A DNA stretch of 32,754 nucleotides, taken from the UHGV virus genome UHGV-0097046; one strand, 5' to 3'. This document shows positions 4,490 to 28,990 of this stretch, piece after piece (within the stretch, counting starts at the first letter, position 1; the number at the start of each line of letters is the position of its first letter). The stretch is from a virus. A program made the position numbers and the translations under genes. Under the pieces are notes generated by a model. That model did no database searches. It was not told the origin of the DNA and saw only the letters and a program-made list of their open reading frames with translations.

Positions 4490-4497
4490 TAATTTTT

Positions 4498-5497: not shown

Positions 5498-5583
5498 ACA
5501 CCCTCCTTAAATCTTAATACCGTATTTATCAAAATATCAACAATTTAATAAATACCTTCATATTTCGTAATGAGGGTAATTAC

Positions 5584-7488
5584 ATGAAACTGATTTCTAA
5601 TAAGGCAAAATTAAAAAAGATTCTCAAAAATATCTCTGCTGCAATTCGTCCACCTAAAACCATGAAACCTAGCGAATGGGTAGAGGCTAATGTAGTTGCG
5701 ACCGATGGTGTTAAAGCCGGATCGCTAATTAAATTGCATCCCTTCCAACGTGGAATGATGGACGCGATCACCGAAGACCGTAGAAAAATTGTGTTTAAAT
5801 GTTCGGCACAGTTGGGTAAGACCATGATTCTTAACGGAATTATCTTCCATCGGATCGCGAGTAACCCTACTAATATCGGGGTGTTGCAATCGAATGTCCG
5901 CGAGTTGAATAGCTGGATCGCTGGTAAGGTGAAGCCAGTATTAGAGGCAACACCAGAATTAAAGGCGATGATCACCGACAAATCAGATCGCAATGCCGTT
6001 AACAACTCATCGATTATTCAGCTTCGTAACGGATCGTTTATGTATTTCATGTCGTTGAATAGTCCGTCACATCTTCGCGGTAAAACACTCCCTTTGATTA
6101 TTCTTGATGAAGTTGATGCGGCTGATGAGTCAGACGAAGGGAACCCGATCCAGCTAGCGGAACAACGCGCAACCACTTTCGGGGAAGATGCAAGGATCGT
6201 AATTGCTTCCACTCCAACCGCTCGTGATGGGGCGATTAACCAACAATGGGAACTCTCGGATAAGAGAAAATATCATGTCGTTTGCCAGCATTGCGGACAC
6301 AAGCACGTAATGGAATGGAGTAGAGTTTTCTTTGATTGGCATACGATTAACTGTAAATCACTGCCGAATCCAGATACTGCCGTTTATCGTTGCCCGTCAT
6401 GTGAAACTGATTGGACAGAAGGGGATCGCCTACGTGCTGTTGCTCAAGGTGAATGGATTGCTACAGAACCAAATGCGGAAGTAATCGGTTTTCATGCTAA
6501 CCGCCTTATGTCTCCGTTTAGTTCTATCCGTGCGTGTGTGGTGGACTTTGCTGATAGCTACGCGAATATGTCACTAGCAACGTTCTACAATACAGTCCTC
6601 GGTGAAACCTTCGATGATCTTAACGAAGATCGCACAGCCGACGAACTGGAAACGCTGAAAACTGATATTAGCCTAGACAATATTCCTGATGATGTACTGG
6701 CTCTGGTAGGTGGAGTTGACCAGCAAAAAGACCGTCTGGAATCTACCTTGCTGGGTATCTCTCGTAAGGGGATATGCGTAGTTGATCACCGATCATTCTA
6801 TGATGTGAACTGCGAACGCCACGAATCACCAGCATATGACCAGCTTTATAACTTCCTGAAAGCGAAATTCTATACCCGATCCGGTGAACGAATCCCGATG
6901 CTATCTGCTTTCGTGGACTCATCGAACGGACGAGCTACAAACGTGATCTACCGTTTTTGCACTAGGTGGCAAAACCTATGCGCCATTAAAGGCGCAAGTA
7001 ATGCTGATGCTCCAATCCTTCCGGCTAAGGACACAAGAACGGGCGGTTTTACTCTCAAAATTCTGGGCGTAAACAACCTTAAGACGATGATCCGTGAAAT
7101 GATTAACCGGAACTTGAGAGATGGCGATCCTCATACTGTCTTCCAGATTGGTGACGTTCCTGATGACTATTGCGAGCAATTGCTTTCTGAACAGTTGAAA
7201 CGGCAGGGTAATACCACACGTTGGGTAAAAGTTGGTCAGCAACGAAACGAGGCTCTCGACTGCCTGGCTTATTCCTATGCTGCTTCTCGCCATGTACTCA
7301 ATAAAATGTCATGGGAAAAACTCGAAGCCATCAAAGATAGTTTGAACCGTGAACCAGAAGAACCCGTAAAAGCTCCTGAAACGCAATCTGACGAGCAAAT
7401 CGAAGAAACTAAGCCAATCACACGACCACAACGTCAAAACATCGCCAGACGCCCAAATAGAGGCCGTAGCTGGGTAACATCGTTCTAA
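5584..7488 (+). CDS. Terminase large subunit, lambda gpA-like
   Basis: P-loop-like CSAQLGKT, Walker B LIILDEVD, and recognisable similarity to lambda gpA segments (EW..AN, PFQRG.M.A, HCGH zinc-ribbon-like, TVLGETF, RNEALDCLAYSYAA); first gene of rightward late operon. Confidence 0.88.
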   Translation: MKLISNKAKLKKILKNISAAIRPPKTMKPSEWVEANVVATDGVKAGSLIKLHPFQRGMMDAITEDRRKIVFKCSAQLGKTMILNGIIFHRIASNPTNIGVLQSNVRELNSWIAGKVKPVLEATPELKAMITDKSDRNAVNNSSIIQLRNGSFMYFMSLNSPSHLRGKTLPLIILDEVDAADESDEGNPIQLAEQRATTFGEDARIVIASTPTARDGAINQQWELSDKRKYHVVCQHCGHKHVMEWSRVFFDWHTINCKSLPNPDTAVYRCPSCETDWTEGDRLRAVAQGEWIATEPNAEVIGFHANRLMSPFSSIRACVVDFADSYANMSLATFYNTVLGETFDDLNEDRTADELETLKTDISLDNIPDDVLALVGGVDQQKDRLESTLLGISRKGICVVDHRSFYDVNCERHESPAYDQLYNFLKAKFYTRSGERIPMLSAFVDSSNGRATNVIYRFCTRWQNLCAIKGASNADAPILPAKDTRTGGFTLKILGVNNLKTMIREMINRNLRDGDPHTVFQIGDVPDDYCEQLLSEQLKRQGNTTRWVKVGQQRNEALDCLAYSYAASRHVLNKMSWEKLEAIKDSLNREPEEPVKAPETQSDEQIEETKPITRPQRQNIARRPNRGRSWVTSF

Positions 7489-7560
7489 TAACTCGCCGTC
7501 CTTCGGGGCGGCTTACTCCTAAATATTGTTAATCCAATAACAATTAAATAAGGGGTAATT

Positions 7561-8058
7561 ATGAGTTTAGAACTAATTCCCTTAGTAATTCGTAAAGGTG
7601 AAAAAATCACGCTGGCGAATGAAGAGGGTGTAACAATTCAGGTAGGAAATAGTAAAGGTATCATTTATCAGGTTGATGATACTCCGGCTAATCACGAGAT
7701 TAAAACCTTAGATTTTGCCGAGGGTAAATATACCATCGTAACCACTTTGGAAGAAGAACTGGTATCAATGCAGGAATTAACTGTATTGCCAGTATTCGCC
7801 AAACAATCCAAAAAAGAATATCTGCGCGAAACGATTGCTTTAATCGAAAATACCATCTATGCGCGCCTAGCCAATGATGAAAGTGCGTTATCTGCAATGA
7901 CGATAAAGGGTAATTCGTTTACCTACGAGTCAATTGCGGTTTTACAACAACTGAAAAGGGATTACGAAAAACAACTCGTAAAACTCATTCAGCAAGAACG
8001 GCGCAAGGCTGGCAATTACTCACCAATTACACCGATTAAAGTACGCTTAACTCGATAA
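7561..8058 (+). CDS. Hypothetical head-region protein (165 aa)
   Basis: ORF with TAAGGGGTAATT RBS context between terminase and portal; no family recognised. Confidence 0.55.
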   Translation: MSLELIPLVIRKGEKITLANEEGVTIQVGNSKGIIYQVDDTPANHEIKTLDFAEGKYTIVTTLEEELVSMQELTVLPVFAKQSKKEYLRETIALIENTIYARLANDESALSAMTIKGNSFTYESIAVLQQLKRDYEKQLVKLIQQERRKAGNYSPITPIKVRLTR

Positions 8059-8067
8059 GGATTTAAC

Positions 8068-11817: not shown

Positions 11818-11822
11818 TAATT

Positions 11823-11848
11823 AGCCCTGCCTAGTGCGGGGCTTTTTT
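11823..11848 (+). terminator. Intrinsic terminator (agccctgc-ctagt-gcggggct + TTTTTT)
   Basis: 8-bp stem, T6 run, directly after the readthrough extension stop. Confidence 0.65.
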
Positions 11849-11879
11849 GTATGTAAATACTCCATAAAGGGGGTAACTA

Positions 11880-12169
11880 TGTTCAAATTATCAGAATCAC
11901 AATTATCAAGAATGTTTAAGAGTGCTCCTGTATTTTCGGTGGAAGGTGGTAAATCAATTCGTGCTTATCATGAAATTACTACTACCGACGAATCGGGGGT
12001 AATGACAGAAACCGAATTTCTATTCTGTCGTGAGGGAGACTTAAATCAGGGTGATATTGTCATTGTAGAAAACCAGCGTTTCAAAGTTCAATACGTTAAG
12101 CGCAATGGTGATAATACCACTGATTGCTTTATTACTCTGGCAGGGGGTACACATGCTCGCTACCGTTAA
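11880..12169 (+). CDS. Head-tail connector/head completion protein candidate (96 aa)
   Basis: Start at ATG preceded by AAAGGGGGTAACT RBS (track ORF begins upstream at 11834 without RBS); position immediately after capsid gene. Confidence 0.45.
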
Positions 12170-12575
12170 TAATATGCCTAGACTGAAAATCAAACGCGCC
12201 TTGCAAGATATTATCGAACAAGATTTAGGTCTGGCTTTAAACGTAGAACAAACTCAGCAAGGTTTTAGTGATGACGTGGTTTGTTGGATTACTGGCATGA
12301 ATGAGACTTACACTAGGGTCCGTGGTGGTAATGCAATGCAAGCTGAATGCGTTATCGAAATGCAATTATATTCTCAGATTCATGAAACAAAAATCCATGA
12401 GGGTATTTGCCAGATAATCCAGATTCAGCCGGATAACCCACGTTTTAAAGATTTGGGCTTCTCTATTTCAGATATCACTCCAGTAGCCTCTAATACCGAT
12501 TATGACGATGATTCTAGTGATGGGGGTATCGTTGGGACACTTAGCCTTAAATTTTCTTATCTAGCGCGTTTTTAA
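12153..12575 (+). CDS. Head-tail joining/tail completion protein candidate (about 140 aa)
   Basis: ATG at 12153 preceded by AGGGGG, overlaps previous gene by 17 nt (translational coupling); position. Confidence 0.45.
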   Translation: MLATVNNMPRLKIKRALQDIIEQDLGLALNVEQTQQGFSDDVVCWITGMNETYTRVRGGNAMQAECVIEMQLYSQIHETKIHEGICQIIQIQPDNPRFKDLGFSISDITPVASNTDYDDDSSDGGIVGTLSLKFSYLARF

Positions 12576-12584
12576 GGGGTAATA

Positions 12585-13418
12585 ATGAATATTACACAAG
12601 ATAACTTAGATATTTTCACTGGATCACATGTTGAAGTGTCGATCTCTAACCAGATAGACAATCAGGTCGACTTTTTCGATCCTAGCTTTAGTTCTATGGA
12701 GAACATCGCAGCATTCCCTACGCTAACCGAATCCACAGAGATAGAAACTCTGGAAGAGTACGATCAGGACGCTACGGGGAAACTTGCTGGTTATCGTAGA
12801 CTGGAACCGACAACACTCACATTAAACCGTGTTCTTGACGATGAACATCAAGCAATGTTGATGAAAGCGGTAGAGGATAAAACACCTTTACGCTTCCGTA
12901 TGTTCTATGTTGTGAACTCTGGCTATAGTGCTGCTAACACTGGTTACTATGTCATCTATGACGCTTATGTCACTAGTCACAAAACCCGTGGCGCAGATAA
13001 CAAAGCTGTAACACTGGAATTTAAACTTGAACCAGATGGCGGGATTTTGGCAAGGGGTATTGCTACCGAAGGCCGGATCTTACGTCAGGGTGATTTTGGT
13101 ATCGGTGCTGGTGTAAATCCTTTCAGTGGTCCTATTGATAGTGAATCTCTGACAGGAAACCGTTTCGTAACTTACAAGGGAACTGCTAGCACTAACCCTT
13201 ATGGTGCTGATACATCGTTAATTCATCTTCAAGCTAATGAGCATGGCGCATGGCAATTAACCTGTAATACTTCTGGCGCACCGCGTTTACGCGTCCGAAA
13301 TATTCAGGAAAACGGTAAATCTGAATGGATTAAAGTCTATTCTACAAACGAGAAACCGACACCTAGCGAAATTGGCGCAGTGGCTAAGACTGACCGGATC
13401 GATTTCGGCGAATACTAA
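12585..13418 (+). CDS. Structural protein (277 aa) sharing the C-terminal motif EKPTPSEIGAV with the tail fiber
   Basis: TAAGGGGTAATA RBS; motif KPTP[SA]EIGA also occurs in ORF 13499..17107. Confidence 0.5.
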   Translation: MNITQDNLDIFTGSHVEVSISNQIDNQVDFFDPSFSSMENIAAFPTLTESTEIETLEEYDQDATGKLAGYRRLEPTTLTLNRVLDDEHQAMLMKAVEDKTPLRFRMFYVVNSGYSAANTGYYVIYDAYVTSHKTRGADNKAVTLEFKLEPDGGILARGIATEGRILRQGDFGIGAGVNPFSGPIDSESLTGNRFVTYKGTASTNPYGADTSLIHLQANEHGAWQLTCNTSGAPRLRVRNIQENGKSEWIKVYSTNEKPTPSEIGAVAKTDRIDFGEY

Positions 13419-13498
13419 GGATTCTCCTACCTAAATAAAACATGACGCGGGGAGGTTAACGCCTCCCTTATTCCTGTTTTATAGTGAGGTGATTCTAG

Positions 13499-16400
13499 AT
13501 GCAATCAATCCAATTTAAACGCACACAAACGGCTGGTAAAAAACCAACGCCGGAACAATTATCACAGGGTGAATTGGCTATTAACCTTGCTGATCACGTT
13601 CTGTATACCAAAGATAAAAATAACGCAGTAGTTCAAATCTCTGTTTCTCCAGAAAAACACGCTGAACTTAACACGAAAGTAGACCAGAATAAAACTAGCA
13701 CTGACCGTGTTATTGCTTCCAACAAACAAGAGGCCGCTAATAATCTGGCTAGTGTTAAAGCTGAACTGAATCAGACTATTACCGCTAAAGACACCGCAAC
13801 CAATAAGCGCATTGATGCTACCAACACCACTGTTAGTAACTTAACCCAGACAGTTACGGCAAATAAAACCGATGCCGACACTAAGATCAATAACCTTACG
13901 GGGACCGTATCTGCGAATAAGACCGCAATTGAAAGAACCGTTGCCGCAAACAAATCTGATGCAGATAGCAAACATGCAGCTTTAACGAAAACGGTCACTG
14001 ACAATAACACCGCGATTAACAACAAGGTTAATACCACTAACACCAACGTTAGCAACTTAACTAAAACTGTTACTGCAAATAAAACCGATGCAGATAACAA
14101 AATTTCTAGCTTAACTAGCACGGTTGCAGCTAACAAAACAGCGATTGAAAAGGTCGTTTCCGACAACAAGAAAGATGCTGATACTAAAATCAGTAACCTT
14201 ACTGGCACTGTGAATAGTAACCATACCGCTATTAACAACAAGGTAGACCAGAACAAATCATCGACCGATGCCGCAATTACAGCCGCCAACAAGCGAATTG
14301 ATGGTATTGAAGGTAGTGCTAACGCAGCATATATCAAGAAGAACACAAAGACCTATCACGGCGCGTATTTGTATAGCAAGACTGGTAACTATCTGGAAGA
14401 TTCAACCGCGAGAGATCTTAATTACTTCGGTGCATTCCGTACCAATGGTCAAGATGGACTCATGGATCTAACCCTTAACGTTCCTCACTCTTCCGGTAAA
14501 GCGCATGGTCGAGGATTTACTTTCCGTTATGCGTCTGGCGGATCTCGTGTTGAAACCTATGGTTTTGATGCTCAGGGACAAAAAGCGTTTAGCTATAAAA
14601 TGTATCACGAAGGGGATAAACCGACTCCTGCTGAAATTGGCGCATATACCAAAGGCGAAATTGATAAGATGTTTATTAAAAATGTCACAATGTCTGTTCC
14701 TTCTGGTAGTGAATCCCGTGCTTATTTCAAGATTGCTACGGCTACGATCCCACAAAATGGTCGTATGGTAATGCTTCGTATCTTCGGTGGTAATGGTTAT
14801 AACGTTAACTCCTATGATCAGGTTGATTTCCTTGAAATTGTTATCCGTTCCGGTAACAATAACCCGAAAGGCGTTAGTATTGCTGCTTATCGTCGAAACT
14901 CTTTGAACGTTCATCAAGTATTTGCGGTTAATACTTCCGGTGATAACTACGACATTTACGTTAACTACGGTCGTTATACTGATAACGTTATTGTCGAATA
15001 TGGTAAGACTAGCGGTGTTTCACTGACTGTTCATGACACCCCAGCTATGACTAACGTTAAGCCGTCTACTGGTGTTACAGATGGACGTGTTATTACAATG
15101 TTCAACACCGAAAACAAGGCCGGAACGTTGATGTTTGATAATAACGGACAGGGTACATATGATATTGTCAGTTTGAATAACGATTCAGGTACTGGTAAAA
15201 AATATCTTCGTAAATTCCGTAGTAAAGCCGCAGAAACAATCTGGCATGAAACTGTTCAAGGTAACGTTTATCGTTTAGCGACTGGTACTACCGATTCTAG
15301 CGAAGTTCTACGAATCACTGGTCGCACCATGTTTACTGGTAAAGGTGTATTTGATGCCGGACAAAACGTTCTTAGATTAGAGCGTCCTAGTAATCAATCA
15401 AACTATATTGAATGGCAAGACCGCCGCAATGGTGCTAATGCTCGTCAAGGTTGGATTGGTTTTGGTAGTGCTGAAACAAATAACTTCCAATGGTATAGCG
15501 ATCAGGGGAAAAACTCATTTCAGCTAGAAGCTAACGGTCAATGCTCTATTACCACTGGTGCAACTAAAATTGTATATACAAACGGCGAGTATGTAGCTGC
15601 TAACTCAAATGCATTCCGTATGATTTACGGCAATTATGGTGCATTTTGGCGCAATGACTCCGCAAAAGTTTATCTTCTGTCAACGGCTGAAAACGATAAG
15701 TTTGGTGGTTGGAATACTTATCGACCATTCATTTATGATCTGACTTCCGGTAACGTTCAATTAGGCGGTGATGGTAACGAAGATGCATTAACGTTAGAAC
15801 GTGCAAGCCGTGCCGCTCGTTTTAGTAATGACGTTTACATTAAGAAAGGTTTTTTGACTTTCGACGCTGGGCGTTCTGGATCGCGTGATTATATTCGATT
15901 TAATCATTGGGGCGATAGCAACAACGCCCGTGATAACGTTTTATACCTCGAAGACAGCAAAGGTCGCCATTTCAGCACCGAACGTAATATGGCTACAGGT
16001 GGACTAAAGGCATATTTCTTAGGTGATCTTGAAGTTGCTGGTCAAATGAGATGGGGTAAGAATACCGGACAATCTAGCTTCAATATTCGTGCATGGGGTA
16101 ATGATACTCGTAAACAAGTATTAGAATGCGCAGATGAAAGCGGCTGGCATTTCTACACACAGCGTGCTGGCGGTCCTGGTACTACCGCAATCGAGTTTAG
16201 CGTAAACGGTAAAATTAACGCTCCCCAACTGTCTATTAGTCAGGATGCAACCATTCCTAAGTTTAATAGCGGTTTTGGTGTTGGTGTTGCTAACGGATTG
16301 GGTGGAAATTCTATTGTTTTAGGCGATAGTGATACTGGATTTAAACAAAACGGTGATGGTGTCCTTGATACCTACGCTAATAACGTTAATGTTGTTCGTC

Positions 16401-17760: not shown

Positions 17761-17765
17761 TTTTA

Positions 17766-17793: not shown

Positions 17794-17808
17794 ATTGGAG
17801 TAATCAAA

Positions 17809-18315: not shown

Positions 18316-18357
18316 ATTCTAAATAAACATATCGAATTAACTTAAGAGGAAACAAGA

Positions 18358-18666: not shown

Positions 18667-18695
18667 ACCCGCTTCTGAATTTCTATTTTCGGCAA

Positions 18696-19037
18696 ATGAT
18701 GCGATCGGGGCTTAGTAAAGATGAAATGGATAATATGCCAATCACTCTGTTTTGGAAATTATACATTTTCGACACCTACTTAGAACCACAAAGCCCCGCG
18801 TTTCATGATATGCAGAATGCGATGTTGCAATATTCCATGTATATGACGTCGCAAGGAATGACACGCGAAACTGCACGCAAACTCAAGCCTAGCCAATTCC
18901 AATTAATTAGAGAAGAAAAACTCTTTAAAACTAAAGAAGAACTGGAAGAAATTGCACGCAAGAAAGAAGAAGAACGTAAAGCGGCAATGCTGAACATGTT
19001 TGATCCATCTTTGCTTGAGAAACTCAGAAGCGGTTAA
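18696..19037 (+). CDS. gpT-like segment, probably expressed mainly as G-T fusion via -1 frameshift
   Basis: In -1 frame relative to 18358..18666; frame open from 18651; no Shine-Dalgarno before ATG 18696. Confidence 0.45.
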   Translation: MMRSGLSKDEMDNMPITLFWKLYIFDTYLEPQSPAFHDMQNAMLQYSMYMTSQGMTRETARKLKPSQFQLIREEKLFKTKEELEEIARKKEEERKAAMLNMFDPSLLEKLRSG

Positions 19038-19048
19038 AGGGGTAATTT

Positions 19049-21478
19049 ATGACAAAACATATAGTAACAATAGAAGGGGATAATAAAGGTCTAAGGAGAA
19101 GTACCAATGAAGCCGCCGACCTTCTCGATAGTTTGTCTGAAAAGGCAAGTAATATTGATTTTGGTGGTGGCTTATCTGGTCTGACTGGATCTCTTCGTGG
19201 GATCGCTGGCTCTGCTGGTTTGGCTGCTGGTGGTATCGGCTTAGTTGCGACCGCAGTGGTTGCAGCCGCTAAAGCTGGCGCGGAATACGTTAAACAATAT
19301 TCAGAAGTATCTAAGGCGACCGGACTCTCGATTGAATCCCTTCAAAGACTGGAAAAGGAATTTTCTGGTACTGGCCTAACAGTTGAAAAATTCGGTGATA
19401 TCAACAAAGACACCTTAGATAAGATGGGTGATGCATGGGCTAACGGTGGTGGTATTGCTGATGACTTAGAATCGGTTGGTCTTAAGTTAGAAAACTATGC
19501 TCACTTCATGACAGATCCGCAAGGTGGTATGAAAGCGGCGATCCAAGTGTTCTATGACATGAAGAAAGCCGGAAAATCAATGGCTGAAATCAAGTTCATG
19601 ATGGAATCTTTAGCCAGTGATTCAAGCCATATGACCAGCCAGCTTGAGAAATATAATAGTGCTCAAGAGGCGATGATCGCTATTCAGAATCAATCTGTTA
19701 ACGTCACCGAAGAAAACGCTAAAAAATATGATAAATTTTCTCAGAATATTAATAAGCTGGAAAATAACCTGAAAGGCGCAGCCATGACCATTACTGGTCC
19801 TTTGGTTGATAGCTTAAACTGGTTATTTGAATGGTTTAATATTGATTGGGAAAAGAGTTCTCTATTCAGGGCATTAGACCGTCTGAATAAAGAAGGTAAG
19901 ACCGCAACTGGTGGTATTCTTAACACCAACCATAAAGACGCTCAAAAGATTATTGACAAGTACAATAAAGAAAAGCGTTGGAATAATCTAGCAGATTGGG
20001 AAAAGGCCGCGATCCGTGGTGCTGGTGTCGATCCTCGTACTGCTGGCTTTGATGTAGAAGGATTTAAGAAACGTTTTGGTGGGTCTTATAAGAAAAATGG
20101 TGCTCTGATTGTCGTAGATGCTGGTGAACATCTGACACGCAAGGCAGATCCTAACACTGATTTAACTCTACCAAATAAACCAGTAAGACCAGAATCATTG
20201 GGTAAATCTGGCAACGAGAAGAAAGCCGAGGAAGAAGCACGCAAGAAAGCGGAAGAGGCAGCTAAAAAGGCTAAGGAAGCCGCAGAAAAAGCACAGAAAG
20301 AACGTGAGGATGCAATCAAGCGTCTGAATGCACTTGATGTTAAATTGCAAGGGCAAGTTGCAGCGTCTATTGCTTCTCAAAACAAGCAGTTAGAAGCCAG
20401 CTTGAAAGATTTGGATACTGCTTTAGATCTGGGCTTAATCTCTCAGCAAGACGCAGCCGCGAAACGCCAATCCTTAATCGATCAGAATACTGAAAACGTA
20501 TACAAGATGATTTTAGGTGCTGATCCGGTTGATGCTCTGAATGCTTTAACACAATTGCAACAAATCAGGGATAATGAGTTAGAAAGCCATAAACGGTTAC
20601 TTGATGGTAAGGCTATCTCCTACGAAGAATATATGCGTCGTGTGAATGATACCGAACAAAGTTATTCGCAGATTGAAGATTCTTTGCATGGAATGGATGG
20701 TTTTAAAACCAATCAGTTGACCAATAGCTTAGACTATCAGGACTCAAATAATCCGTTTGCTAAATTTAATGCAATCGATAAAGAGAAATCGGAAGCCGAA
20801 CAAGATTATAAAACCGATAAACTCAAGATTGATGGGATCACCGATCCGGCTAAACGGATGGAAGAATTAGAAAAACTCAATGAAAACCATCAAAAACGAA
20901 TGGCTGCAATTGAGAAGAAATATGCTGATGCTCGCCAGTCAATAGCCGATGATATGTACGGCGGTTTTGCTGCTGCAATGACTCTCTTCGGGCAGGAAAA
21001 CACTAAAGCTATGCAGATGGCTTTCAATGCTCATAAAGCATTCTCTATCGGACAAGCGACGGTGAACATGTGGACGGCTGCTACCGATGCATGGAACGAT
21101 CCGACCAACGTAACCACAGGTCAAAAAATCGCTGCTGCTGCATTGGCTGTTTCTCAGAACATGGGGAACATCGCAAACATCAAGTCTACTAACGTTAGCG
21201 GTATGGCTCATGATGGTATCGATAATATCCCTCGTGAGGGTACATGGTTGCTTGATAAGGGTGAACGAGTAGTTGATCAGCGTACTAACGGTGATTTGAA
21301 AGACTTCCTTGCTGCTCAAAAATCAGGCGGTGGCAACTCTCAGCCGATTGAAGTTAACGCACCTTTGAACATTAACGGCAACGTTAATAGCTCAGACAAG
21401 ATGGTCATGGATGCTATCAAACGTCACGCTAAGTTAGTTGCTCAGGCGGTAGAAGACGCACAACGCCGTAAGATGTAA
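19049..21478 (+). CDS. Tail tape measure protein (809 aa)
   Basis: Size, position after the G/T pair, Gly/Ala-rich hydrophobic segment (GGGLSGLTGSLRGIAGSAGLAAGGIGLVATAVVAAAKAGA), extended coiled-coil/charged regions. Confidence 0.8.
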   Translation: MTKHIVTIEGDNKGLRRSTNEAADLLDSLSEKASNIDFGGGLSGLTGSLRGIAGSAGLAAGGIGLVATAVVAAAKAGAEYVKQYSEVSKATGLSIESLQRLEKEFSGTGLTVEKFGDINKDTLDKMGDAWANGGGIADDLESVGLKLENYAHFMTDPQGGMKAAIQVFYDMKKAGKSMAEIKFMMESLASDSSHMTSQLEKYNSAQEAMIAIQNQSVNVTEENAKKYDKFSQNINKLENNLKGAAMTITGPLVDSLNWLFEWFNIDWEKSSLFRALDRLNKEGKTATGGILNTNHKDAQKIIDKYNKEKRWNNLADWEKAAIRGAGVDPRTAGFDVEGFKKRFGGSYKKNGALIVVDAGEHLTRKADPNTDLTLPNKPVRPESLGKSGNEKKAEEEARKKAEEAAKKAKEAAEKAQKEREDAIKRLNALDVKLQGQVAASIASQNKQLEASLKDLDTALDLGLISQQDAAAKRQSLIDQNTENVYKMILGADPVDALNALTQLQQIRDNELESHKRLLDGKAISYEEYMRRVNDTEQSYSQIEDSLHGMDGFKTNQLTNSLDYQDSNNPFAKFNAIDKEKSEAEQDYKTDKLKIDGITDPAKRMEELEKLNENHQKRMAAIEKKYADARQSIADDMYGGFAAAMTLFGQENTKAMQMAFNAHKAFSIGQATVNMWTAATDAWNDPTNVTTGQKIAAAALAVSQNMGNIANIKSTNVSGMAHDGIDNIPREGTWLLDKGERVVDQRTNGDLKDFLAAQKSGGGNSQPIEVNAPLNINGNVNSSDKMVMDAIKRHAKLVAQAVEDAQRRKM

Positions 21479-21483
21479 TTAAA

Positions 21484-21526
21484 AGCCCCCATAGTCATAA
21501 ATAATCATAAAACTATGGGGGCTTTT
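21484..21526 (+). terminator. Hairpin (agcccccatag ... ctatgggggct) with TTTT; terminator or attenuator after tape measure gene
   Basis: 11-bp perfect stem with ~16-nt loop, then T-run immediately before the next start codon. Confidence 0.45.
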
Positions 21527-21528
21527 CT

Positions 21529-22089
21529 ATGTTCAAATCCAAGAATATTAAAATCACAGATTTTACTCTTAAATCAAAACAGCCTTTCTTCAAGGCGCAA
21601 TCTATCTCCGGTAAATTTCAACGTCGCTTTACTGGCATTCATTTTTACGAAGCAGAATTTACCGCGAATTACATGGCTCAGGATATTAACGAAGTAAAAG
21701 AATTTGTAGCACGTCACCTTTTTGGTCGTCCTTTTAGTGTGCCACTGTCTTACTTTTCAAAATATACAGGTGATGTACGCCAGATGGTTACGGCTGCTGC
21801 TGGTACTGCTCGCGGTGGGCGTAAGGTGAGAATCTCCAACTTCACCGGAACACTGAAAGCGGGAACTATCATCCAGTTTGAGAACCACAAGAAAATCTAC
21901 ACGATCACCGAAGATGTGAAATCAGGTGGCGAAATGAAACTCTTCCCTAATTTGCGTCAGAACGTCCTGGCTGGTGAGGTGATCAAGTATCAGAACGTAG
22001 AAGGTGAATTTGTTCTCAAAACGGAAAATATCGATTGGAAGATCGCCCAGATTGGCAAGATGAAATTCGAATTAGTGGAGAATGTATAA
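21529..22089 (+). CDS. Minor/distal tail protein (lambda gpM position)
   Basis: Position directly after tape measure; stop overlaps next start (TAATG). Confidence 0.5.
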   Translation: MFKSKNIKITDFTLKSKQPFFKAQSISGKFQRRFTGIHFYEAEFTANYMAQDINEVKEFVARHLFGRPFSVPLSYFSKYTGDVRQMVTAAAGTARGGRKVRISNFTGTLKAGTIIQFENHKKIYTITEDVKSGGEMKLFPNLRQNVLAGEVIKYQNVEGEFVLKTENIDWKIAQIGKMKFELVENV

Positions 22090-22742
22090 TGGCAACTATT
22101 CAGGAATCATTCAGCAAACTATGCACTAATCTGGACTTCATCGAGGTATACAACGACCAGACAGGTCAGAATGTGTCTAGATTGACTCTACCGCAGCTTT
22201 TCTCTACTGGCTCGATGTTTCACATTATCGAAGTGATAACAGCGTCAGGGGACGTTCTACGGCTTACAGATGGGTATTTCGATTTGGACTATAACGGTTT
22301 TACATATCTCGCAACGGGTGATTTTCTTCAAATCTCATCGAATACCGAAGAGAAGGAGATCAACAACAACGGGATCAACGTAACTGTTTCTAACGTTCGC
22401 GAAGAATACATTAGCCTGATTCGAAACAAGCAATTCGATAAATCTGATGTGAAAATCGAGATGGTTTTCCTTAACCCCAACACGGGCAAGGTTGAAACTA
22501 CTTACCCTGTTTTCCGTGGGGTAGTCGATTCCATCGGTATTAACATCGAACATGAAGATGATGAGTGTAAAAACGAATCAGAATTTCAGCTTAATAGTAT
22601 CTGGGAAGTTCTAGATAAAAACGCTCGTAGTCATGCCTCCGATGGTATCCACCGATCCTATGTTGGAAACGAGAACGATCTATTCTTCTCTCGTGCCGGG
22701 AAGTGGCAAAGCGAGTCGAAGTGGTTTAGCTCTAAGAAATAA
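22089..22742 (+). CDS. Minor tail protein (lambda gpL position, 217 aa)
   Basis: Start at ATG overlapping upstream stop with GGAGA RBS (track ORF begins upstream at 22035); size close to gpL. Confidence 0.5.
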   Translation: MATIQESFSKLCTNLDFIEVYNDQTGQNVSRLTLPQLFSTGSMFHIIEVITASGDVLRLTDGYFDLDYNGFTYLATGDFLQISSNTEEKEINNNGINVTVSNVREEYISLIRNKQFDKSDVKIEMVFLNPNTGKVETTYPVFRGVVDSIGINIEHEDDECKNESEFQLNSIWEVLDKNARSHASDGIHRSYVGNENDLFFSRAGKWQSESKWFSSKK

Positions 22743-22788
22743 TCCCTTCTCCCTAAGCCTAGTAAATAACAGCATGGAGGTATTCAAC

Positions 22789-23208
22789 ATGCTAAAAACT
22801 AGGCTTATCACCGATTACATCAATTCTTTAATAGGTCAGGAGTTCGTTCAAGGCGAGAATGATTGCAATCTCATTGCATGTAAGATCATCGATATTCTCG
22901 CTGGTACTGACCTATATAATTCTCTTTATAAAAAATATTCAACTAAAGAAGAAGGCTTGAAAATCTGCAAAGAATTAAGCGGATATTCAAACATCCTTCA
23001 ACCAATAAAGAAACATTTCAAATTAGTCACTGATGATTTACAGGACGGCGACTTACTGGTCACAGCCCACAAATTAGGAAACCGTAATTATTATTCCGTA
23101 GTTCCTCATTATTCCGGTTATGGCCTCGTTGAAGAAGATGGTATCTGGATGACCATTCCTGTTTCAGACATTGACTATGAACAAGTTTATAGATTCGGGG
23201 GTGAATAA
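22789..23208 (+). CDS. Tail assembly protein candidate (lambda gpK/gpI position), possible NlpC/P60-like Cys-His fold
   Basis: ATG at 22789 with GGAGG RBS (track ORF begins upstream at 22633); conserved Cys (ENDCNL) and downstream His residues; stop overlaps J-like start. Confidence 0.4.
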   Translation: MLKTRLITDYINSLIGQEFVQGENDCNLIACKIIDILAGTDLYNSLYKKYSTKEEGLKICKELSGYSNILQPIKKHFKLVTDDLQDGDLLVTAHKLGNRNYYSVVPHYSGYGLVEEDGIWMTIPVSDIDYEQVYRFGGE

Positions 23209-26200
23209 TGGGATTTGAAATATTGGTAGGCGCGGTGATCGCTGGTGCTTCGGCGGGGATGGCGGCAGCCGCAACATTTTCTGTTATGACCGCAGTCGCT
23301 ATCGGTATGGCTGCTGGTGCAATGACCTTGATCGCTTCCACTGTAGGCGCACCAAAAACACCTAAAGTACAAAGCCCAGATAATGCGGTGACACTAGGAA
23401 CATCAAACGATCCGAAGACAGTATTACCCGTTCTTTTCGGTGTTACCCGTACTGGTACAAACTGCGTTTACAAAGCAATTTCTAAAAGAGAAAACAATAA
23501 GTTAGTGCAAATCTTCGCTGTAGCAGAGGGTGAAATCGACCACTACAAAGCACTGTTTATCGATAATAAAAATGTTCTTGTTGGTAAGAACATGACGATC
23601 CGTGATGGCATTCTCGATAAGGGCAACATTAAAGAAGAATACCGGAAAGTGTTGGAGGTTGAGTTCCGCACGGGTAAGAATCCTAACACCGCTTTGTCAC
23701 TGGCAAAACAGCATTTAGGCTCAGACTGGACCGATGCTTACAAGGGTAACGGCATTGCAACCATGTGTATTGTGTTACGTCGTGATGACAAATCTCTTGC
23801 TGCTGGTGTTGATATCCTTCAACCAAATAGCCAAGTGGCAGTCGATGTTATGGGCTTAAAGATTCGTAACCTTGAAACCAATGCTATTGAGGCTAGCACT
23901 AACGGCGTGGACCAGATTTTCCACTACCTAACAAATGAAAAATATGGCTTATCCGTACCAATTGAAAACATTAACGTTGATTCATTCCTGAAAGTACGTA
24001 AGCAAGTACGCCAGATGGATTTGCATTCAAACGGTGCATGTGATCCGAACGCCAGCTTTAAAGAGAACTTAACTAGCCTTATGCAGACTTTCGGCGGGGT
24101 GATGTTCGAATCCTTCGGAAGAATTACCCTGAAACTGGATGCTCCTGATATTGTTAAGCATACCTTCAATGAAGACAATATCATGATGGGTAAGGTATCA
24201 CTGAAAACAGGTGGCACTAACGGTTATTTCAATACCATTAACGCGATGTATCAGGAACCATCAATTGACTATTCCGAGCAAATGCTACGTTATCCGGCTG
24301 ATGCTGAAAACGATGCTACTATTCGTCAAGATGGTCGAATTATCGCTAAAGATATTGAATATCGTTTTGTTAAGTCTAAAGCCCAGATTGATAAACTTGC
24401 GAGTGTAGAACGAAATAAATCTCGTATCACTCAGGTTATCAGCTTTATGACTACTGACGCATTCACTGCCGAAGTTTGGGACGTTATCAGCGTAACCTAT
24501 GATGAATTGAAACTGAATAATTCACTTTGGCGTATTACCGCAATTGATCGTTCTATTGATTCTGGTATTGCTGGGATGATGACTATCACCGCTACAGAAT
24601 ATAATTCTCAGGTTTATACTGACCTGAACTATGCGGCAACTCCAGACAATAGACCAAGTGGTTTACCGGATTCAATGACAGTACAGAAGCCTACTAATTT
24701 CAGAATTAAGGCAACTGGCGAGACGATTTACGGTAAAAACGTTACTTTGACATGGGATGCACCGGAAGATTTTAACCGCTACGGCTTCCAGATTGATTAC
24801 CGTGTAAGCGGATCACCTAACTGGATTAAGTTGGGACAGACTTCACAGCAAATTTTCAGTGTCAATGCACTGGCAAAAGATCGTTCCTACGATTACCGAG
24901 TTTGTGCTTTCGGTATCATCGCGCGATCCGATTGGGTAGAACTGGTTAACCAGAATCCTACCGTTACCTATGAATTGCCGACTCCGGTTATTCGAATCAA
25001 AAATCAGGGTAGCACGCCAGGAACTTTCGAAGGTAATGATCTGATTATCGAATGGGAAAACCAGCAACAATTAGATGTGATGATCAACGGTGAAACTAAC
25101 AAGTTTAGTGACCTGTTTGAAGCATACATTATCAAGGTGACTAACAAGGCTGGTAAGTCTATTCAGTACCGTACCCGCGATCCTGAATCATGGACTTATA
25201 CGCTTGATATGAACCAGTTTAACGGCCTTTCGCGTCAACTGACGGTAGAAGTATCAGCTAAGGGCTATAACAACTCAGAGAGCGCCCCAGCGCGTTTAGT
25301 GGCTATCAACCCACAACATAAGCCAATGAAAGGTTTTAGTGCGCGTGGTGGCTTTAATACTGCGTTTGTTAGCTGGGCGGATGACGTAGAACATGACTAT
25401 GCAGGGTCAATCATCCAGTATGCAACCGACAACACTTTCTCAGATGCAAGGGCAGTAAGCACGAATAGTGTTAGCCATACTTCCTTTGATATTGCTGACG
25501 GTGATTATTATATCCGTGGTGCTCACTACGATATTTTCGGTATGGATGATGCTGTTTGGTCTGAACCGTATTTCATGCAAATGAAATCTACCATTAGCTG
25601 GGACGATCAGGACAAAGAAGCACTGGAAGACCTGATTGGTTTACAAGATCGCTTAGATGAAACCATCGCTGATGCTATTGCTCAAGCTGGCGCTAATGCC
25701 GATGCTAAAATTGATGCAATGCATAAGCAAATCACTACCGAGACGGGTAAAACTGTTCAAGCCTCAGCCGATACCTTAAAGAGTCTGATTGCTTCTGGTG
25801 ATAAGGCAAGTTCAACTAAGATTGATCAGGTTAAAGCTGAACTGAAAGGCGATATCACCAAAGAAGTTAGCGCCTCCGCTACAACCCTGAAACAAGCTAT
25901 TGCTACCAGTGAAGCAGCAAGCGCAAGTAAGATTGACCAAGTTCGGGTAGAAATGGATGGCAAGATTGCTGGTGTGAATCAGGAAGCGGACGTTAAGATC
26001 GATGCTTTGAAGGGAACCATTAACAGCAAATACAATCTAGCAGTTAATGCAGATGGTCGCGTGGCTGGCATTCACATGAGCGCAACTAACGATCCGGCAC
26101 AACCGACTAAAATCATCTTTACGGCTGATAAAATTGCTGTAGCTCCGCAGAACGGGACCGATGTTTGCCCGTTTGGTATCGAAGGTAACAAGGTTTATCT

Positions 26201-26984
26201 CGATAATGCGATGATTCGTAATGCCTCAATCGGATCAGCACAGATTACTGATGCTAGTATCACCACGGCTAAAATTGGCAATGCTGCGATCAATTCAGCG
26301 AAAATCCAAGACGGCGCGATCACCAACGCCAAGATTGTAAATGGCGCAATTGATAACGCTAAAATCGGTAACTATATCCAGTCTTCCAACTGGAACGGAT
26401 CTACCGGATGGCATATCAATAAGAACGGTAGTGCTACGTTCATGAACGCTACCGTTAAAGGTAATATCACGGCTGATTCCGGTACTCTGAACAACGTCAC
26501 GATTAACTCTAGCTGTGTTATTAAGGGTATGCTTGAAGCTACTCAGGTTAAGGGTGATTTCGTTAAGGTGATTGGTCGTAAGTTCCCACACCGTGATGTT
26601 AACGTTGATAATGGTTATGGTGGCTATCCGCAAGGTACAGTAACCGTTCGCGTTGAAGATGATCACAAGTTCGATCGTCAAATCGTTATTCCGGCAATTA
26701 GTTTTGGTGGATTGCGAGCGCGTGAAGGGTCGAACAATAATACCTATTACGACACCTGTCGCCTGATTGTTCGTAAGAATGGGTCAGAGTTGTATAATAG
26801 GGCGTATGGCGGTAATACTGGTCTTTACTCAGGTGTTATTGATATGCCAGCGGGTAAAGGTGCTGTGACCTTGACCTTTGAAGTGCAATCAAGCGCAATC
26901 AACAACTGGACGCCTAGCACATGGATCAGTGATTTAACTGTAATGGTAACTAAAAAAGCTACTACGGGTATTACTGTTTCTTAA
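23208..26984 (+). CDS. Central tail fiber / host specificity protein, lambda gpJ-like (1258 aa)
   Basis: C-terminal 150 aa clearly similar to the receptor-binding end of lambda gpJ (SGTLNNVTINSSC...; TVTVRVEDDHKFDRQIVIP; IDMPAGKGAVTLTF; LTVMVTKKATTGITVS); internal fibronectin-III-like segments; hydrophobic Gly/Ala-rich N-terminus. Confidence 0.88.
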   Translation: MGFEILVGAVIAGASAGMAAAATFSVMTAVAIGMAAGAMTLIASTVGAPKTPKVQSPDNAVTLGTSNDPKTVLPVLFGVTRTGTNCVYKAISKRENNKLVQIFAVAEGEIDHYKALFIDNKNVLVGKNMTIRDGILDKGNIKEEYRKVLEVEFRTGKNPNTALSLAKQHLGSDWTDAYKGNGIATMCIVLRRDDKSLAAGVDILQPNSQVAVDVMGLKIRNLETNAIEASTNGVDQIFHYLTNEKYGLSVPIENINVDSFLKVRKQVRQMDLHSNGACDPNASFKENLTSLMQTFGGVMFESFGRITLKLDAPDIVKHTFNEDNIMMGKVSLKTGGTNGYFNTINAMYQEPSIDYSEQMLRYPADAENDATIRQDGRIIAKDIEYRFVKSKAQIDKLASVERNKSRITQVISFMTTDAFTAEVWDVISVTYDELKLNNSLWRITAIDRSIDSGIAGMMTITATEYNSQVYTDLNYAATPDNRPSGLPDSMTVQKPTNFRIKATGETIYGKNVTLTWDAPEDFNRYGFQIDYRVSGSPNWIKLGQTSQQIFSVNALAKDRSYDYRVCAFGIIARSDWVELVNQNPTVTYELPTPVIRIKNQGSTPGTFEGNDLIIEWENQQQLDVMINGETNKFSDLFEAYIIKVTNKAGKSIQYRTRDPESWTYTLDMNQFNGLSRQLTVEVSAKGYNNSESAPARLVAINPQHKPMKGFSARGGFNTAFVSWADDVEHDYAGSIIQYATDNTFSDARAVSTNSVSHTSFDIADGDYYIRGAHYDIFGMDDAVWSEPYFMQMKSTISWDDQDKEALEDLIGLQDRLDETIADAIAQAGANADAKIDAMHKQITTETGKTVQASADTLKSLIASGDKASSTKIDQVKAELKGDITKEVSASATTLKQAIATSEAASASKIDQVRVEMDGKIAGVNQEADVKIDALKGTINSKYNLAVNADGRVAGIHMSATNDPAQPTKIIFTADKIAVAPQNGTDVCPFGIEGNKVYLDNAMIRNASIGSAQITDASITTAKIGNAAINSAKIQDGAITNAKIVNGAIDNAKIGNYIQSSNWNGSTGWHINKNGSATFMNATVKGNITADSGTLNNVTINSSCVIKGMLEATQVKGDFVKVIGRKFPHRDVNVDNGYGGYPQGTVTVRVEDDHKFDRQIVIPAISFGGLRAREGSNNNTYYDTCRLIVRKNGSELYNRAYGGNTGLYSGVIDMPAGKGAVTLTFEVQSSAINNWTPSTWISDLTVMVTKKATTGITVS

Positions 26985-27088
26985 AAATTTAATTTTAATA
27001 ATTAATCCCGCTTAATTCTTTTGAGTTAGGCGGGATTATTTTTATCTAAATAATTCTGCCATGAAATTATAAAAATATCGGGGGCGTA

Positions 27089-27367
27089 ATGACTGAAATT
27101 ATATATGGCGGTATCGGTGTTATCGCCTTAATTTGCGGTGGTCTTTGGAGACTTCACCGAAATCAATTAGCAACTGAAAATAGGTTATCTAAATTGGAAT
27201 CCAGCGACGCATTGTTAAACCAGAAGTTTGAGACGATGCAGAATAACCATACTCAGATTGCTGAACGTGTTTACCAAATGGAACAAACACTACACGGTAT
27301 AGAGAAGAAAGTGGTTGCGATGGATGCTAAATTTGACCAAGTTCTCGACATACTCAAACAAAAATAA
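27089..27367 (+). CDS. Membrane-anchored coiled-coil protein (92 aa); holin or i-spanin-like lysis candidate
   Basis: One N-terminal TM helix (IIYGGIGVIALICGGLW) then coiled-coil; location in lysis region. Confidence 0.45.
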   Translation: MTEIIYGGIGVIALICGGLWRLHRNQLATENRLSKLESSDALLNQKFETMQNNHTQIAERVYQMEQTLHGIEKKVVAMDAKFDQVLDILKQK

Positions 27368-27385
27368 TAATAAAGGGGTGAATAT

Positions 27386-27556
27386 ATGAAGAATAAACTT
27401 AAGAAATATTTTGGTTATCTCTTGATTGTCGCCCTCACTTATAACGTAGCTATTAGACCTCTGCTAACGTCCTTTGGGCTTGAACTCCCGGCTATGACCG
27501 TGGATGAACAATTGCTAAGGACACTGGCGGGGGGCTTTTCGTTATTAGGGGGCTAA
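27386..27556 (+). CDS. Small membrane protein (about 56 aa), holin candidate; not in ORF track
   Basis: ATG after TAAAGGGGTGAAT RBS; hydrophobic segment YFGYLLIVALTYNVAI; exact end uncertain by 1-2 nt. Confidence 0.3.
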   Translation: MKNKLKKYFGYLLIVALTYNVAIRPLLTSFGLELPAMTVDEQLLRTLAGGFSLLGG

Positions 27557-27557
27557 C

Positions 27558-28241
27558 ATGGCAACCAGTACCAATAAACGAAACGCTCTAAGGACTAAGA
27601 AAGCGTTACGGCAATGGTCTGAAAAGGCAACCGATACATTCGAAAGGGCACTAGGGGAAGGGGCGATCTTTGCTTCCAGAGCACTCCAGAAGAAGATTAA
27701 CAAGAATGTTGATAGACCTACTCGATGGACTCAACAAGCTGTAGGTAATACCAACTACAAGAACCGATCAGGGACGAGACACCAAATCTTCATCAAGGGC
27801 GCAAGGGATAAGGACAAGAAGATCGGCAGTCAGGATGACTATCTGAAACACTATTTCGATGGTGGCAAAATCAATAAGCTAGTGCCAATCGCTAACGGTA
27901 AGGTCTTAGACGCCCACGGGAACATTAAGGCCATCAAAGGCGGTAAGATGATGCGTAACATCGAAAACGGCAACTTCATCAAGGTAGAAAACAAGGAAGG
28001 AACTTTTATCATGAAGAAGTACAAGCCTAAGAAATCCCGAACCAAACGCGCTAGGAATGGATCGGCGGTGGCAAAACGTCGCTTAGAGAAACGCATCCAG
28101 AAACAGAGTAAGCGAATTGTTGCCGTTAAGTCGGATAAAATTTCTACTCGTTATTCGACGCTAGGATCGTGGGAAAGCAACGAGGAAATGATGCTTAAGA
28201 ACATTAATAAGCACATTAAATCGCGCATGAGATACGTTTAA
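27558..28241 (+). CDS. Highly basic K/R-rich protein (227 aa), function unknown
   Basis: ORF start overlaps preceding stop; about 25 percent K+R; no family recognised. Confidence 0.55.
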   Translation: MATSTNKRNALRTKKALRQWSEKATDTFERALGEGAIFASRALQKKINKNVDRPTRWTQQAVGNTNYKNRSGTRHQIFIKGARDKDKKIGSQDDYLKHYFDGGKINKLVPIANGKVLDAHGNIKAIKGGKMMRNIENGNFIKVENKEGTFIMKKYKPKKSRTKRARNGSAVAKRRLEKRIQKQSKRIVAVKSDKISTRYSTLGSWESNEEMMLKNINKHIKSRMRYV

Positions 28242-28279
28242 TCCATAAATACCCTCATAGAATCTTATGGGGGTATAAC

Positions 28280-28627
28280 ATGGCTAAAAATATTTTCACT
28301 GAATTTCCTACTTATCCGGTCGATCAGCTTTCCGGTATTTTTATTAATGGCATTAGTCCAGAATCAATGACTTATGATTTTGAGGCGAAGAGAGTTAAAC
28401 ATAAACAATATAAAGAATGTATCCGTGACCATGAAAAGGGGACCGTGTTTTGTGTCGCTACATTGGCTAAACGTCCTAAGTATCGTTTTCGTGTCGAGCA
28501 AGAAGTCGATGTAGTTAATCCTTATAGCTTTAATTGTCTGGGCGATGCACGCGCGGTGTGTGTAGGCACTGCTCCTTATTATATCAAGGGTATGCGCTTT
28601 ATTGGTTATATCTTCGAAATGATCTAA
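28280..28627 (+). CDS. Hypothetical protein (115 aa)
   Basis: ORF between basic protein and endolysin; no family recognised. Confidence 0.5.
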   Translation: MAKNIFTEFPTYPVDQLSGIFINGISPESMTYDFEAKRVKHKQYKECIRDHEKGTVFCVATLAKRPKYRFRVEQEVDVVNPYSFNCLGDARAVCVGTAPYYIKGMRFIGYIFEMI

Positions 28628-28636
28628 GGGGGTAAT

Positions 28637-28990
28637 ATGTTAAGCAAACATTTTTCTCGCAAGGAATTTAAATGTAAATGCGGAAAATGTGATTATGATA
28701 CAATCGACGCTGAATTACTGGTAATTCTTGAGGATGTACGAGAGCACTTCGGTAAACCAGTGATTATTAACAGTGGCAACCGTTGCCCGACTCATAACAA
28801 GAATGTAGGCGGGGCAGCCAATAGCTATCACGTTCGAGGCCGTGCGGCTGACATTGTTATCAAGGGTGTCTCACCTGATATTGTTCATGCTTATCTTGAT
28901 GGGAAATATCCTACTCAATACGGCTTAGGAAAATATAAAACATTTACGCATATCGATTCCAGATCAAAAAAATCACGGTGGAATGGATAA
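28637..28990 (+). CDS. Endolysin, peptidase M15 (zinc D-Ala-D-Ala carboxypeptidase / L-Ala-D-Glu peptidase-like)
   Basis: Motif SGNRCPTHNKNVGGAANSYHVRGRAADIV with H-x6-D and downstream H zinc ligands typical of M15/hedgehog-type peptidases; TAAGGGGGTAAT RBS. Confidence 0.8.
   Translation: MLSKHFSRKEFKCKCGKCDYDTIDAELLVILEDVREHFGKPVIINSGNRCPTHNKNVGGAANSYHVRGRAADIVIKGVSPDIVHAYLDGKYPTQYGLGKYKTFTHIDSRSKKSRWNG

Follow-up and report, generated by a model that had tools for sequence, protein, structure and literature searches.

A recurrent G-run motif before the late genes of an Escherichia coli prophage, read as a lineage-typical Shine-Dalgarno site

UHGV-0097046 is a viral sequence of 32,754 nucleotides (nt), here called the window when taken as a whole, which covers most of the length of an Escherichia coli prophage of about 35 kb. 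Its morphogenesis and lysis genes form a + strand block that spans 5584-29180: a terminase large subunit of the GpA type (5584-7488), a head-tail joining-like protein (7561-8058), the portal (starting at 8068), a protease-capsid fusion, a tail fibre of 1,202 amino acids (aa; 13499-17107), the tail tube (17164-17634), a Gp38-like adhesin located 3′ of the tube gene (17809-18315), a tail assembly chaperone G-like open reading frame (ORF; 18358-18666), a lambda-T-like ORF (from 18735 to its stop TAA at 19035-19037), the tape measure (19049-21478), a distal-tail-like protein (21529-22089), a hub protein, the tail-tip protein (23208-26984), small membrane proteins and an M15-peptidase endolysin (28637-28990). 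Many of these late genes are preceded by four or five G in a row, a stretch that very probably is their Shine-Dalgarno (SD) ribosome-binding site (RBS), written in the lineage-typical form (U)AAGGGG(G)U instead of GGAG.

The starts of the late genes were taken over from the RefSeq annotation of the prophage of strain CE0007a, which is about 95% identical across window positions 1-4501 and 11682-32754; they are consistent with that annotation and with the Pfam-supported genes. A GGGG(G) run ends 4-7 nt (mode 5) before the ATG of 13 of the 23 late genes (57%), and the G-run and T are all that the 13 sites have in common. Four exact copies of AAGGGGTAAT, at 7550, 12574, 17151 and 19037, each ending 1-3 nt before an ATG, serve the genes at 7561 and 12585, the tail tube gene and the tape-measure gene. 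The corresponding RBS regions are TAAGGGGTAATT (7549-7560, with the G-run at 7552-7555, a 5-nt spacer and 63 nt between the site and the upstream stop), TAAGGGGTAATA (12573-12584, before gene 12585-13418), TAAGGGGTAATTCT (17150-17163) and TAAAGGGGTAATTT (19035-19048). One additional G is found before the endolysin and before gene 11879-12169 (AAGGGGGTAAT / AAGGGGGTAAC), whose RBS regions are TAAGGGGGTAAT (28625-28636) and TAAAGGGGGTAACT (11865-11878, G-run 11869-11873, 5-nt spacer, predicted 16S duplex of -12.1 kcal/mol), respectively. Gene 12153-12575 has its site, CAGGGGGTACAC (12141-12152; duplex -10.8 kcal/mol), within the preceding gene, with which it overlaps by 17 nt, and the tail-tip gene combines CGGGGGTGAATA (23196-23207; duplex -14.5 kcal/mol) with a TAATG stop/start overlap. 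The small gene 27386-27556 is served by TAAAGGGGTGAATAT (27371-27385; duplex -12.5 kcal/mol), in which the motif is spelled AAGGGGTGAAT; the remaining G-run sites are TGGGGGCTTTTCT (21516-21528) of the distal-tail-like gene, CGGGGGCGTA (27079-27088) of gene 27089-27367, AGGGGGCTAAC (27547-27557) of gene 27558-28241 and TGGGGGTATAAC (28268-28279) of gene 28280-28627. The 5′ flank is TAA or AAA in seven of the 13 sites and the 3′ flank is T in ten, while those before 21529, 27089 and 27558 have no extended flanks. The same flavour of SD appears outside the late block, as TAAGGGGAATTTTTACT (3657-3673), before a Rha/Ant-like regulator gene on the + strand (3674-4489).

An earlier note on this DNA had described the motif as near-identical before eight genes, the terminase included, and as present on many late genes. 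Seven of the eight do carry the G-run; the terminase has only TGAGGGTAATTAC (5571-5583), a loose match of the GAGGGT type with no run of four G. The presence on many late genes holds as well, and extends to six that had not been cited (12153, 21529, 23208, 27089, 27558 and 28280), whose sites lack the AA and TAAT flanks, and to the Rha-like gene at 3674. Two details need correction, since the gene placed at 11880 begins at 11879, and the gap of 2-5 nt proposed between motif and ATG is 0-3 nt when counted from TAAT, the distance from the G-run being 4-7 nt.

The motif is real, conserved and non-random. Against dinucleotide-preserving shuffles, AAGGGG is found in 22 copies versus 10.0 ± 3.0, 20 of the 22 lying on the + strand, and AAGGGGTAAT with at most one mismatch in 10 copies versus 1.83 ± 1.22 expected, a number that none of 100 shuffles reached. 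The 13-nt zone 5′ of the + strand starts makes up 1% of positions and holds 22 of the 74 GGGG (30%), 8 of the 20 AAGGGG (40%) and 5 of the 9 GGGGTAA (56%) of this strand, which corresponds to an enrichment of about 30-55-fold; thus the equal frequency at non-start positions, which the earlier note had named as its refutation, is not seen. Two of the AAGGGG copies that do not precede starts are arms of inverted repeats, 3323(-)/3340(+) and 29205(+)/29221(-), and the second repeat was scored as terminator-like by the scan.

Syntenic relatives were found via homologues of the tail tube protein, namely another E. coli lineage (L013), Salmonella (L005), Edwardsiella (L007), Providencia (L008) and two metagenomic contigs (L014 and L015); a scan of genome contigs gave three loci, which were used for word counts only. 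Four E. coli copies agree in all their G-runs and spacers but differ in the upstream flanks: the ungapped mismatch between E. coli copies is 0.07-0.11 at positions -1 to -20, as compared with 0.22 at -60 to -41 and 0.19 at third codon positions. At orthologous starts across the Salmonella, Edwardsiella, Providencia and E. coli relatives, GGGG alternates with GAGGT, GGAGG or AGAGG. Indeed, the homologue of 12585 has the canonical GCGAGGTT in relatives, the tail tube orthologues have AAAGGGTGA or AGAGAGGTAA at the RBS position, and the tape-measure orthologues have ACGAGGTAT or AAAGAGGTGG, while the RBS of the 7561 homologue is retained as ATAAGGGGTAA in Salmonella and Providencia. The portal gene, with TAAGGA in the region AAGGATTTAAC (8058-8067), has TAAGGGGTAAATC in three other E. 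coli copies, an alternation of TAAGGA with TAAGGGG. In the relative L021 the endolysin follows a different upstream gene and keeps the same TAGGGGGTAAT directly before its ATG. From these comparisons, the motif moves with the downstream gene and not with the upstream stop.

The partner of the motif would be the 3′ end of the 16S rRNA (3′-AUUCCUCCA-5′), for which the E. coli sequence GGATCACCTCCTTA was read from rrsD. The five-G form is predicted to pair completely, with a single central G·U wobble where GGAGG has an A-U pair; indeed, each of the nine bases of UAAGGGGGU, in the endolysin site, finds a partner in the 16S tail, the wobble falling on the middle G. The four-G form would pair with the rRNA U bulged out, as can be drawn for UAAGGGGU. 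With an A/U-rich spacer of 4-7 nt and then AUG, the 30S subunit would be set on the start codon as by a canonical strong SD. In terms of predicted energy, the duplex of AAGGGGGU reaches -11.3 kcal/mol versus -12.2 for AAGGAGGU, a difference of 0.9; the full motifs give -12.4 kcal/mol for UAAGGGGGUAAU and -8.3 for UAAGGGGUAAU, the latter with a one-base bulge. Averaged over the best duplex of each gene, the late genes reach -9.0 kcal/mol, lambda late genes -8.7, ribosomal-protein genes -8.05 and the other host sets between -5.7 and -6.5 (late genes versus 121 host genes, Mann-Whitney P = 4e-4). The pairing also accounts for the TAA that precedes the G-run at starts where no upstream gene terminates (7561, 17164 and 3674), because UAA and the U belong to the complement of the 16S tail, UAAGGAGGU.

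The assignment as an SD thus rests on where the motif lies, how it can pair with the 16S rRNA, its concentration at starts, its conservation and its exchange for canonical SDs at orthologous positions, the comparison of relatives being decisive, and we give it a probability of about 0.9; the translation-initiation context proposed in the earlier note is borne out as an SD site followed by an A/U-rich spacer. Ribosome binding itself, and coupling, are inferred. No evidence contrary to an SD function was found, and two features do not follow from it: the four-G form is some 4 kcal/mol weaker than the five-G form, and the GGGG spelling is rare in the comparison sets, so that a purely neutral choice of it in 57% of the late genes is somewhat surprising. 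There is next to no chance that the motif merely reflects base composition, namely G-rich words that are common on a purine-rich coding strand. It is true that 12 of the 20 AAGGGG copies of the + strand lie away from starts and that GGGG occurs 74 times on this strand versus 30 on the other; however, the observed counts are never reached by the shuffles, and both the start-zone enrichment and the comparison with host genes (Fisher P = 5e-8, given below) refute chance as the explanation. It is likewise very improbable that the motif serves primarily as part of a late promoter, as an operator or as a site of RNA processing for a phage regulator. Four exact copies of one 10-mer could suggest such a role, and the AT-rich, partly palindromic flanks (AATTA-AGGGG-TAATT at 17164) might be taken for a protein-binding site or a small hairpin; yet the distance to the ATG stays constant at 4-7 nt even in 9-nt intercistronic junctions and in overlapping upstream genes, only the G-run and T are common to the 13 sites, canonical SDs stand at orthologous positions and the motif is wholly lacking in distant syntenic relatives (0 of 19 and 1 of 20 genes). 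In addition, a sigma-70-like scan returned promoter-like sites no more often than in shuffles, and none tied to the motif. A promoter or operator role was dropped on the fixed ATG distance, the interchange with canonical SDs and these scans. The mechanism of the motif as an SD is ordinary, and no new mechanism is revealed.

What sets the late genes apart is the spelling. Counting GGGG within the zone from -20 to -4, such sites serve 13 of the 23 late genes versus 7 of 121 in a sample of E. coli genes from three loci (6%; Fisher P = 5e-8), and among the late genes of other phages they amount to 3 of 24 in lambda, 2 of 22 in P2, 2 of 19 in HK97, 3 of 36 in T4 and 4 of 29 in RB49, a range of 8-14%. 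Within the family, the E. coli relatives have 10 of 21 (L013) and 14 of 23 (the CE0007a copy), or 48-61%; the Providencia, Edwardsiella and Salmonella relatives have 5-6 of 19-20 (26-32%); and the two distant relatives with 0 of 19 and 1 of 20 use TAAGGA or GGAG instead. This distribution points to the GGGG spelling as a derived dialect of the E. coli/Salmonella clade. A lineage can therefore re-spell most of its RBSs in a way seldom used by its host and lose no predicted affinity, and the prophage offers a small and clean example of lineage-specific SD dialects, which shows why SD models centred on GGAG under-call such starts. For this prophage family the motif is a reliable start-site marker, and it settles starts such as 11879 and 12153; its absence marks the ORF at 18735 as a likely frameshift product.

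As to why GGGG came to be used over GGAG, lineage-specific drift among nearly equivalent SD spellings is most likely. An adaptive switch, by which the G-runs would let the late mRNAs escape a factor that binds or cleaves RNA at GGA or GGAG, or would tune very long SD duplexes, is unlikely as a whole and found no support here; if true, selection would have driven a systematic re-spelling of the RBSs in a phage lineage. Very strong SDs can impair expression, and on this reading a perfect UAAGGAGGU(GAU) would bind too tightly and slow ribosome clearance. The G-run form might accordingly temper SDs that are over-long, with 7-9 nt of pairing (UAAGG..GGU), the wobble or bulge holding affinity in a useful range, a possibility that we consider doubtful. 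It fits with the -18.5 kcal/mol predicted for the full-length canonical 12-mer UAAGGAGGU(GAU), as compared with -8.3 to -12.4 for the observed forms, and with how common the complementarity-extending flanks are; however, the sites without extended flanks have nothing to temper, the step from AAGGAGGU to AAGGGGGU costs merely the 0.9 kcal/mol already given, and lambda late genes reach an equal mean duplex energy with canonical spellings. The evasion of a GGAG-specific endoribonuclease resembling T4 RegB, cutting SDs at GG/AG, or of the GGA-binding repressor CsrA, with ribosome binding kept, is less probable still. T4 RegB is a GGAG-specific nuclease that acts on SDs and inactivates early mRNAs (PMC3014915), and several counts in the prophage go in the direction of avoidance. 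GGAG is found in the SD zone of 3 of the 23 late genes versus 51 of 121 host genes (P = 0.009), and GGA in 6 of 23 versus 83 of 121 (P = 3e-4), while GGAG-type SDs occur in 4 of the 11 other genes of the window, which are mostly on the minus strand. Measured against synonymous-codon shuffles of the late coding strand, GGAG is also the most depleted tetramer inside the genes (13 observed versus 47 expected, z = -6.3, observed/expected ratio (O/E) 0.28), as it is in the relatives L013 and L005. Yet the excess depletion comes wholly from two absent pentamers, CGGAG and GGAGC (0 observed versus 18.8 expected), and GGAG flanked on both sides by A, G or T has an O/E of 0.43, similar to that of distant relatives, T4 and RB49 (0.45-0.62). 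Moreover, the early genes, here a non-redundant set from 14 lineage copies, for which IMG/VR relatives were used with our own ORF heuristic, are GGAG-depleted as well (O/E 0.50), so that the early/late contrast is non-significant; T4 encodes RegB and yet has an ordinary GGAG depletion in its late genes (0.60); and three late genes of the prophage (17809, 22089 and 22789) retain GGAG-type SDs. Scans with Pfam, PHROGs and PADLOC, no structure-based search being run, detected no RegB, RNase or defence domain in the early, accessory and small late proteins of the element. A RegB-like GGAG RNase is thus unsupported, given the two absent pentamers, the early depletion, the T4 baseline and the lack of a nuclease domain in the scanned proteins. 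CsrA avoidance was dropped because GGAA, GGAC and GGAT are not depleted, being at expectation on the late coding strand, as are GGGG and the reverse complement CTCC.

Two further leads on GGAG were followed and left. The insertion of the prophage inside hicB, described below, had raised a link to HicA, which was dropped, as the review literature reports for HicA neither sequence-specific mRNA cleavage nor GGAG specificity (PMC7781912). The RB49-derived segment of the tail-fibre gene, considered as a natural experiment on the purging of GGAG, was uninformative, since RB49 gp37 itself has no GGAG.

The earlier note had further held that the TAA inside the motif is in several cases the stop of the preceding gene, implying tight translational coupling along the operon. 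An embedded stop, always the TAA that lies 5′ of the G-run, is confirmed at three of the 13 sites, where it abuts the G-run and ends gene 12153-12575 (before 12585), the T-like ORF (before 19049) and gene 28280-28627 (before 28637), and it recurs at the portal (8068), with TAAGGA; the other G-run sites have none. At these four junctions the stop-to-start gap is 9-11 nt. The upstream ribosomes would here be released onto the next RBS, which would favour re-initiation. At the tape-measure junction of the relatives L021 and L022, the stop is the 3′ TAA of GGGGTAATTT instead of the 5′ TAA. Five further junctions (12153, 22089, 23208, 27558 and 28983) show an overlap or a 1-nt gap, so that coupling is plausible at about nine of the 22 junctions. 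As for the operon as a whole, several G-run sites are preceded by spacers of 38-190 nt, those before 7561, 11879, 17164 and 27089 measuring 72, 190, 56 and 104 nt, respectively, and of the eight sites cited in the earlier note four come after spacers of 45-180 nt; coupling is therefore local and not a property of the motif.

Some of these spacers are structured. Conserved hairpins are found 5′ of 7561 (7500-7520, GCCGTCCTTCGGGGCGGC) and 5′ of the tail tube gene (17115-17133); both are retained at homologous positions in the E. coli, Salmonella, Edwardsiella and Providencia relatives and in the two metagenomic contigs, and the stem sequences of the tube-gene hairpin differ between genera. This difference suggests that an RNA structure is conserved before the most highly expressed genes. 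The spacers 5′ of 11879 and 27089 contain terminator-like hairpins. Indeed, strong hairpins resembling intrinsic terminators, with T-tracts, occur on the + strand at 4498-4518, 11823-11843, 17765-17789 and 27003-27038, that is, after the Rha-like, capsid, tail tube and tail tip genes and inside the rightward block; the first three are nearly identical in sequence (AGCCYYGCCT..GYGGGGCTTTTT). Their placement suggests that late transcription may be attenuated or antiterminated, or that they may control stoichiometry. The only late ORF without an SD is the lambda-T-like one at 18735 (-3.1 kcal/mol), which is located 3′ of the tail assembly chaperone and therefore may not be independently initiated. 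The chaperone-like ORF (18358-18666) is followed by the T-like ORF, open in the -1 frame to 19037, and the arrangement is probably a programmed frameshift of the G/GT type; a canonical XXXYYYZ slippery heptamer was not found at 18358-19037, where only GUAAAG stands directly before the stop.

A different feature of the window, probably a more useful lead than the motif, concerns words that occur in one orientation only and may inform on the restriction pressures acting on the prophage family. On the + strand of the whole window, CTCAG is found 38 times and its reverse complement CTGAG 0 times; the corresponding counts are 37 and 2 for GAACC and GGTTC, 16 and 0 for CTGCTG and CAGCAG, and 23 and 1 for AACCC and GGGTT. 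These one-way words span the entire prophage irrespective of gene direction, leftward-transcribed regions included. They also occur in the CE0007a copy (L001), in L013, in the Salmonella relative L005 and in loci L020-L034. Fifteen other E. coli copies show the biases of CTGAG, CAGCAG and GGGTT as well, with a few CTGAG exceptions in loci that apparently contain host flank, and the GGTTC bias is weaker in several E. coli copies (up to 7 versus 18). In Salmonella, CTGAG is found 0 times versus 18 for CTCAG, and CAGCAG 0 versus 17 for CTGCTG; in the metagenomic contig L015 the orientation is reversed (CAGCAG 17, CTGCTG 0); and coliphage RB49 has CTGAG once versus 26, and GAACC once versus 59 for GGTTC. 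CAGCAG is the site of the Type III enzyme EcoP15I, from which T7 escapes by having its sites in one orientation (PMC3874151). By analogy, the one-way words look like evasion of orientation-dependent (Type III) restriction with multiple targets. CGGAG and GGAGC are likewise absent from the late coding strand (5584-29180), which has 16 and 13 copies of their respective reverse complements, and the same is found in L013 and L005; GACCC, GGGTT and CTTGG are similarly missing from this strand. The two absent pentamers may belong to the same class of restriction avoidance, although, unlike CTGAG, both are present on the + strand where transcription runs leftward.

The prophage was found by megablast, with positions 12000-29000 as the query, in 58 of 5,426 complete E. 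coli genomes, each time in the chromosome, and matches in the phage collection were limited to the tail-fibre segment that it has in common with RB49-like T-even phages. In CE0007a it is inserted within hicB, which encodes the antitoxin of the hicAB toxin-antitoxin locus (right end of the window at about 32729-32754; L001 1162-1470 and 36755-36871), leaving an N-terminal HicB fragment beside an intact hicA; in the copies of ETEC4090 and 2017.18.04CC, the insertion adjoins or lies inside ycdX instead. The minus strand carries nine genes, at 50-1602, 4638-5497 and 29525-32728, mostly of unknown function and including a large serine recombinase. Three minus-strand early proteins (1420-1602, 4638-4871 and 4904-5497) have a common C-terminal motif (..F/Y..LKKY/LDIK..), found twice in the 197-aa protein; from this motif they may be paralogous small DNA-binding regulators, and none of the three matched any Pfam, PHROG or PADLOC family. 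Between the divergent early genes, a stretch of about 1.2 kb (1603-2844) has no ORF of at least 60 aa except one short TTG ORF, and it could house an origin, a regulatory region or a non-coding RNA; recognisable repressor or replication genes were not found in the window. In the late block, segments of the tail-fibre gene (13499-17107) are 71-80% identical in DNA to gene 37, the distal long-tail-fibre gene of RB49-like T-even phages, so that a T-even receptor-binding module, consisting of the gene 37-like fibre and the Gp38-type adhesin, stands within a temperate phage with a lambda-like tail. The gene at 27558-28241, between the small membrane proteins and the endolysin, codes for an extremely basic, K/R-rich protein of 227 aa, of unknown function, with homologues at the equivalent position in the Salmonella, Edwardsiella and Providencia relatives.

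With the canonical E. coli SD (UAAGGAGGU), the late sites share the position 4-7 nt before the AUG, the pairing partner, a similar predicted duplex energy and the interchangeability at orthologous starts; they differ in the central A, which is replaced by G, giving a G·U wobble, or deleted, with the rRNA U bulged. Some junctions also share with the termination-reinitiation of phage morphogenesis operons a stop within or next to the RBS, or an ATGA or TAATG overlap; unlike operon-wide coupling of that kind, several G-run sites follow long spacers, some of them with hairpins or terminator-like structures. In the T4 RegB system, early GGAG SDs are cut and later mRNAs are spared, and the prophage recalls it with its GGAG SDs in 4 of the 11 other genes and in few late ones. 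This is a resemblance only, because a RegB homologue was not detected, the early/late GGAG contrast is not significant and the GGAG depletion inside the genes consists of two absent pentamers plus a baseline common to AT-rich phages. Finally, as in the evasion of EcoP15I by T7, in which the sites stand in a single orientation, the prophage shows a similar signature, here for several motifs at once.

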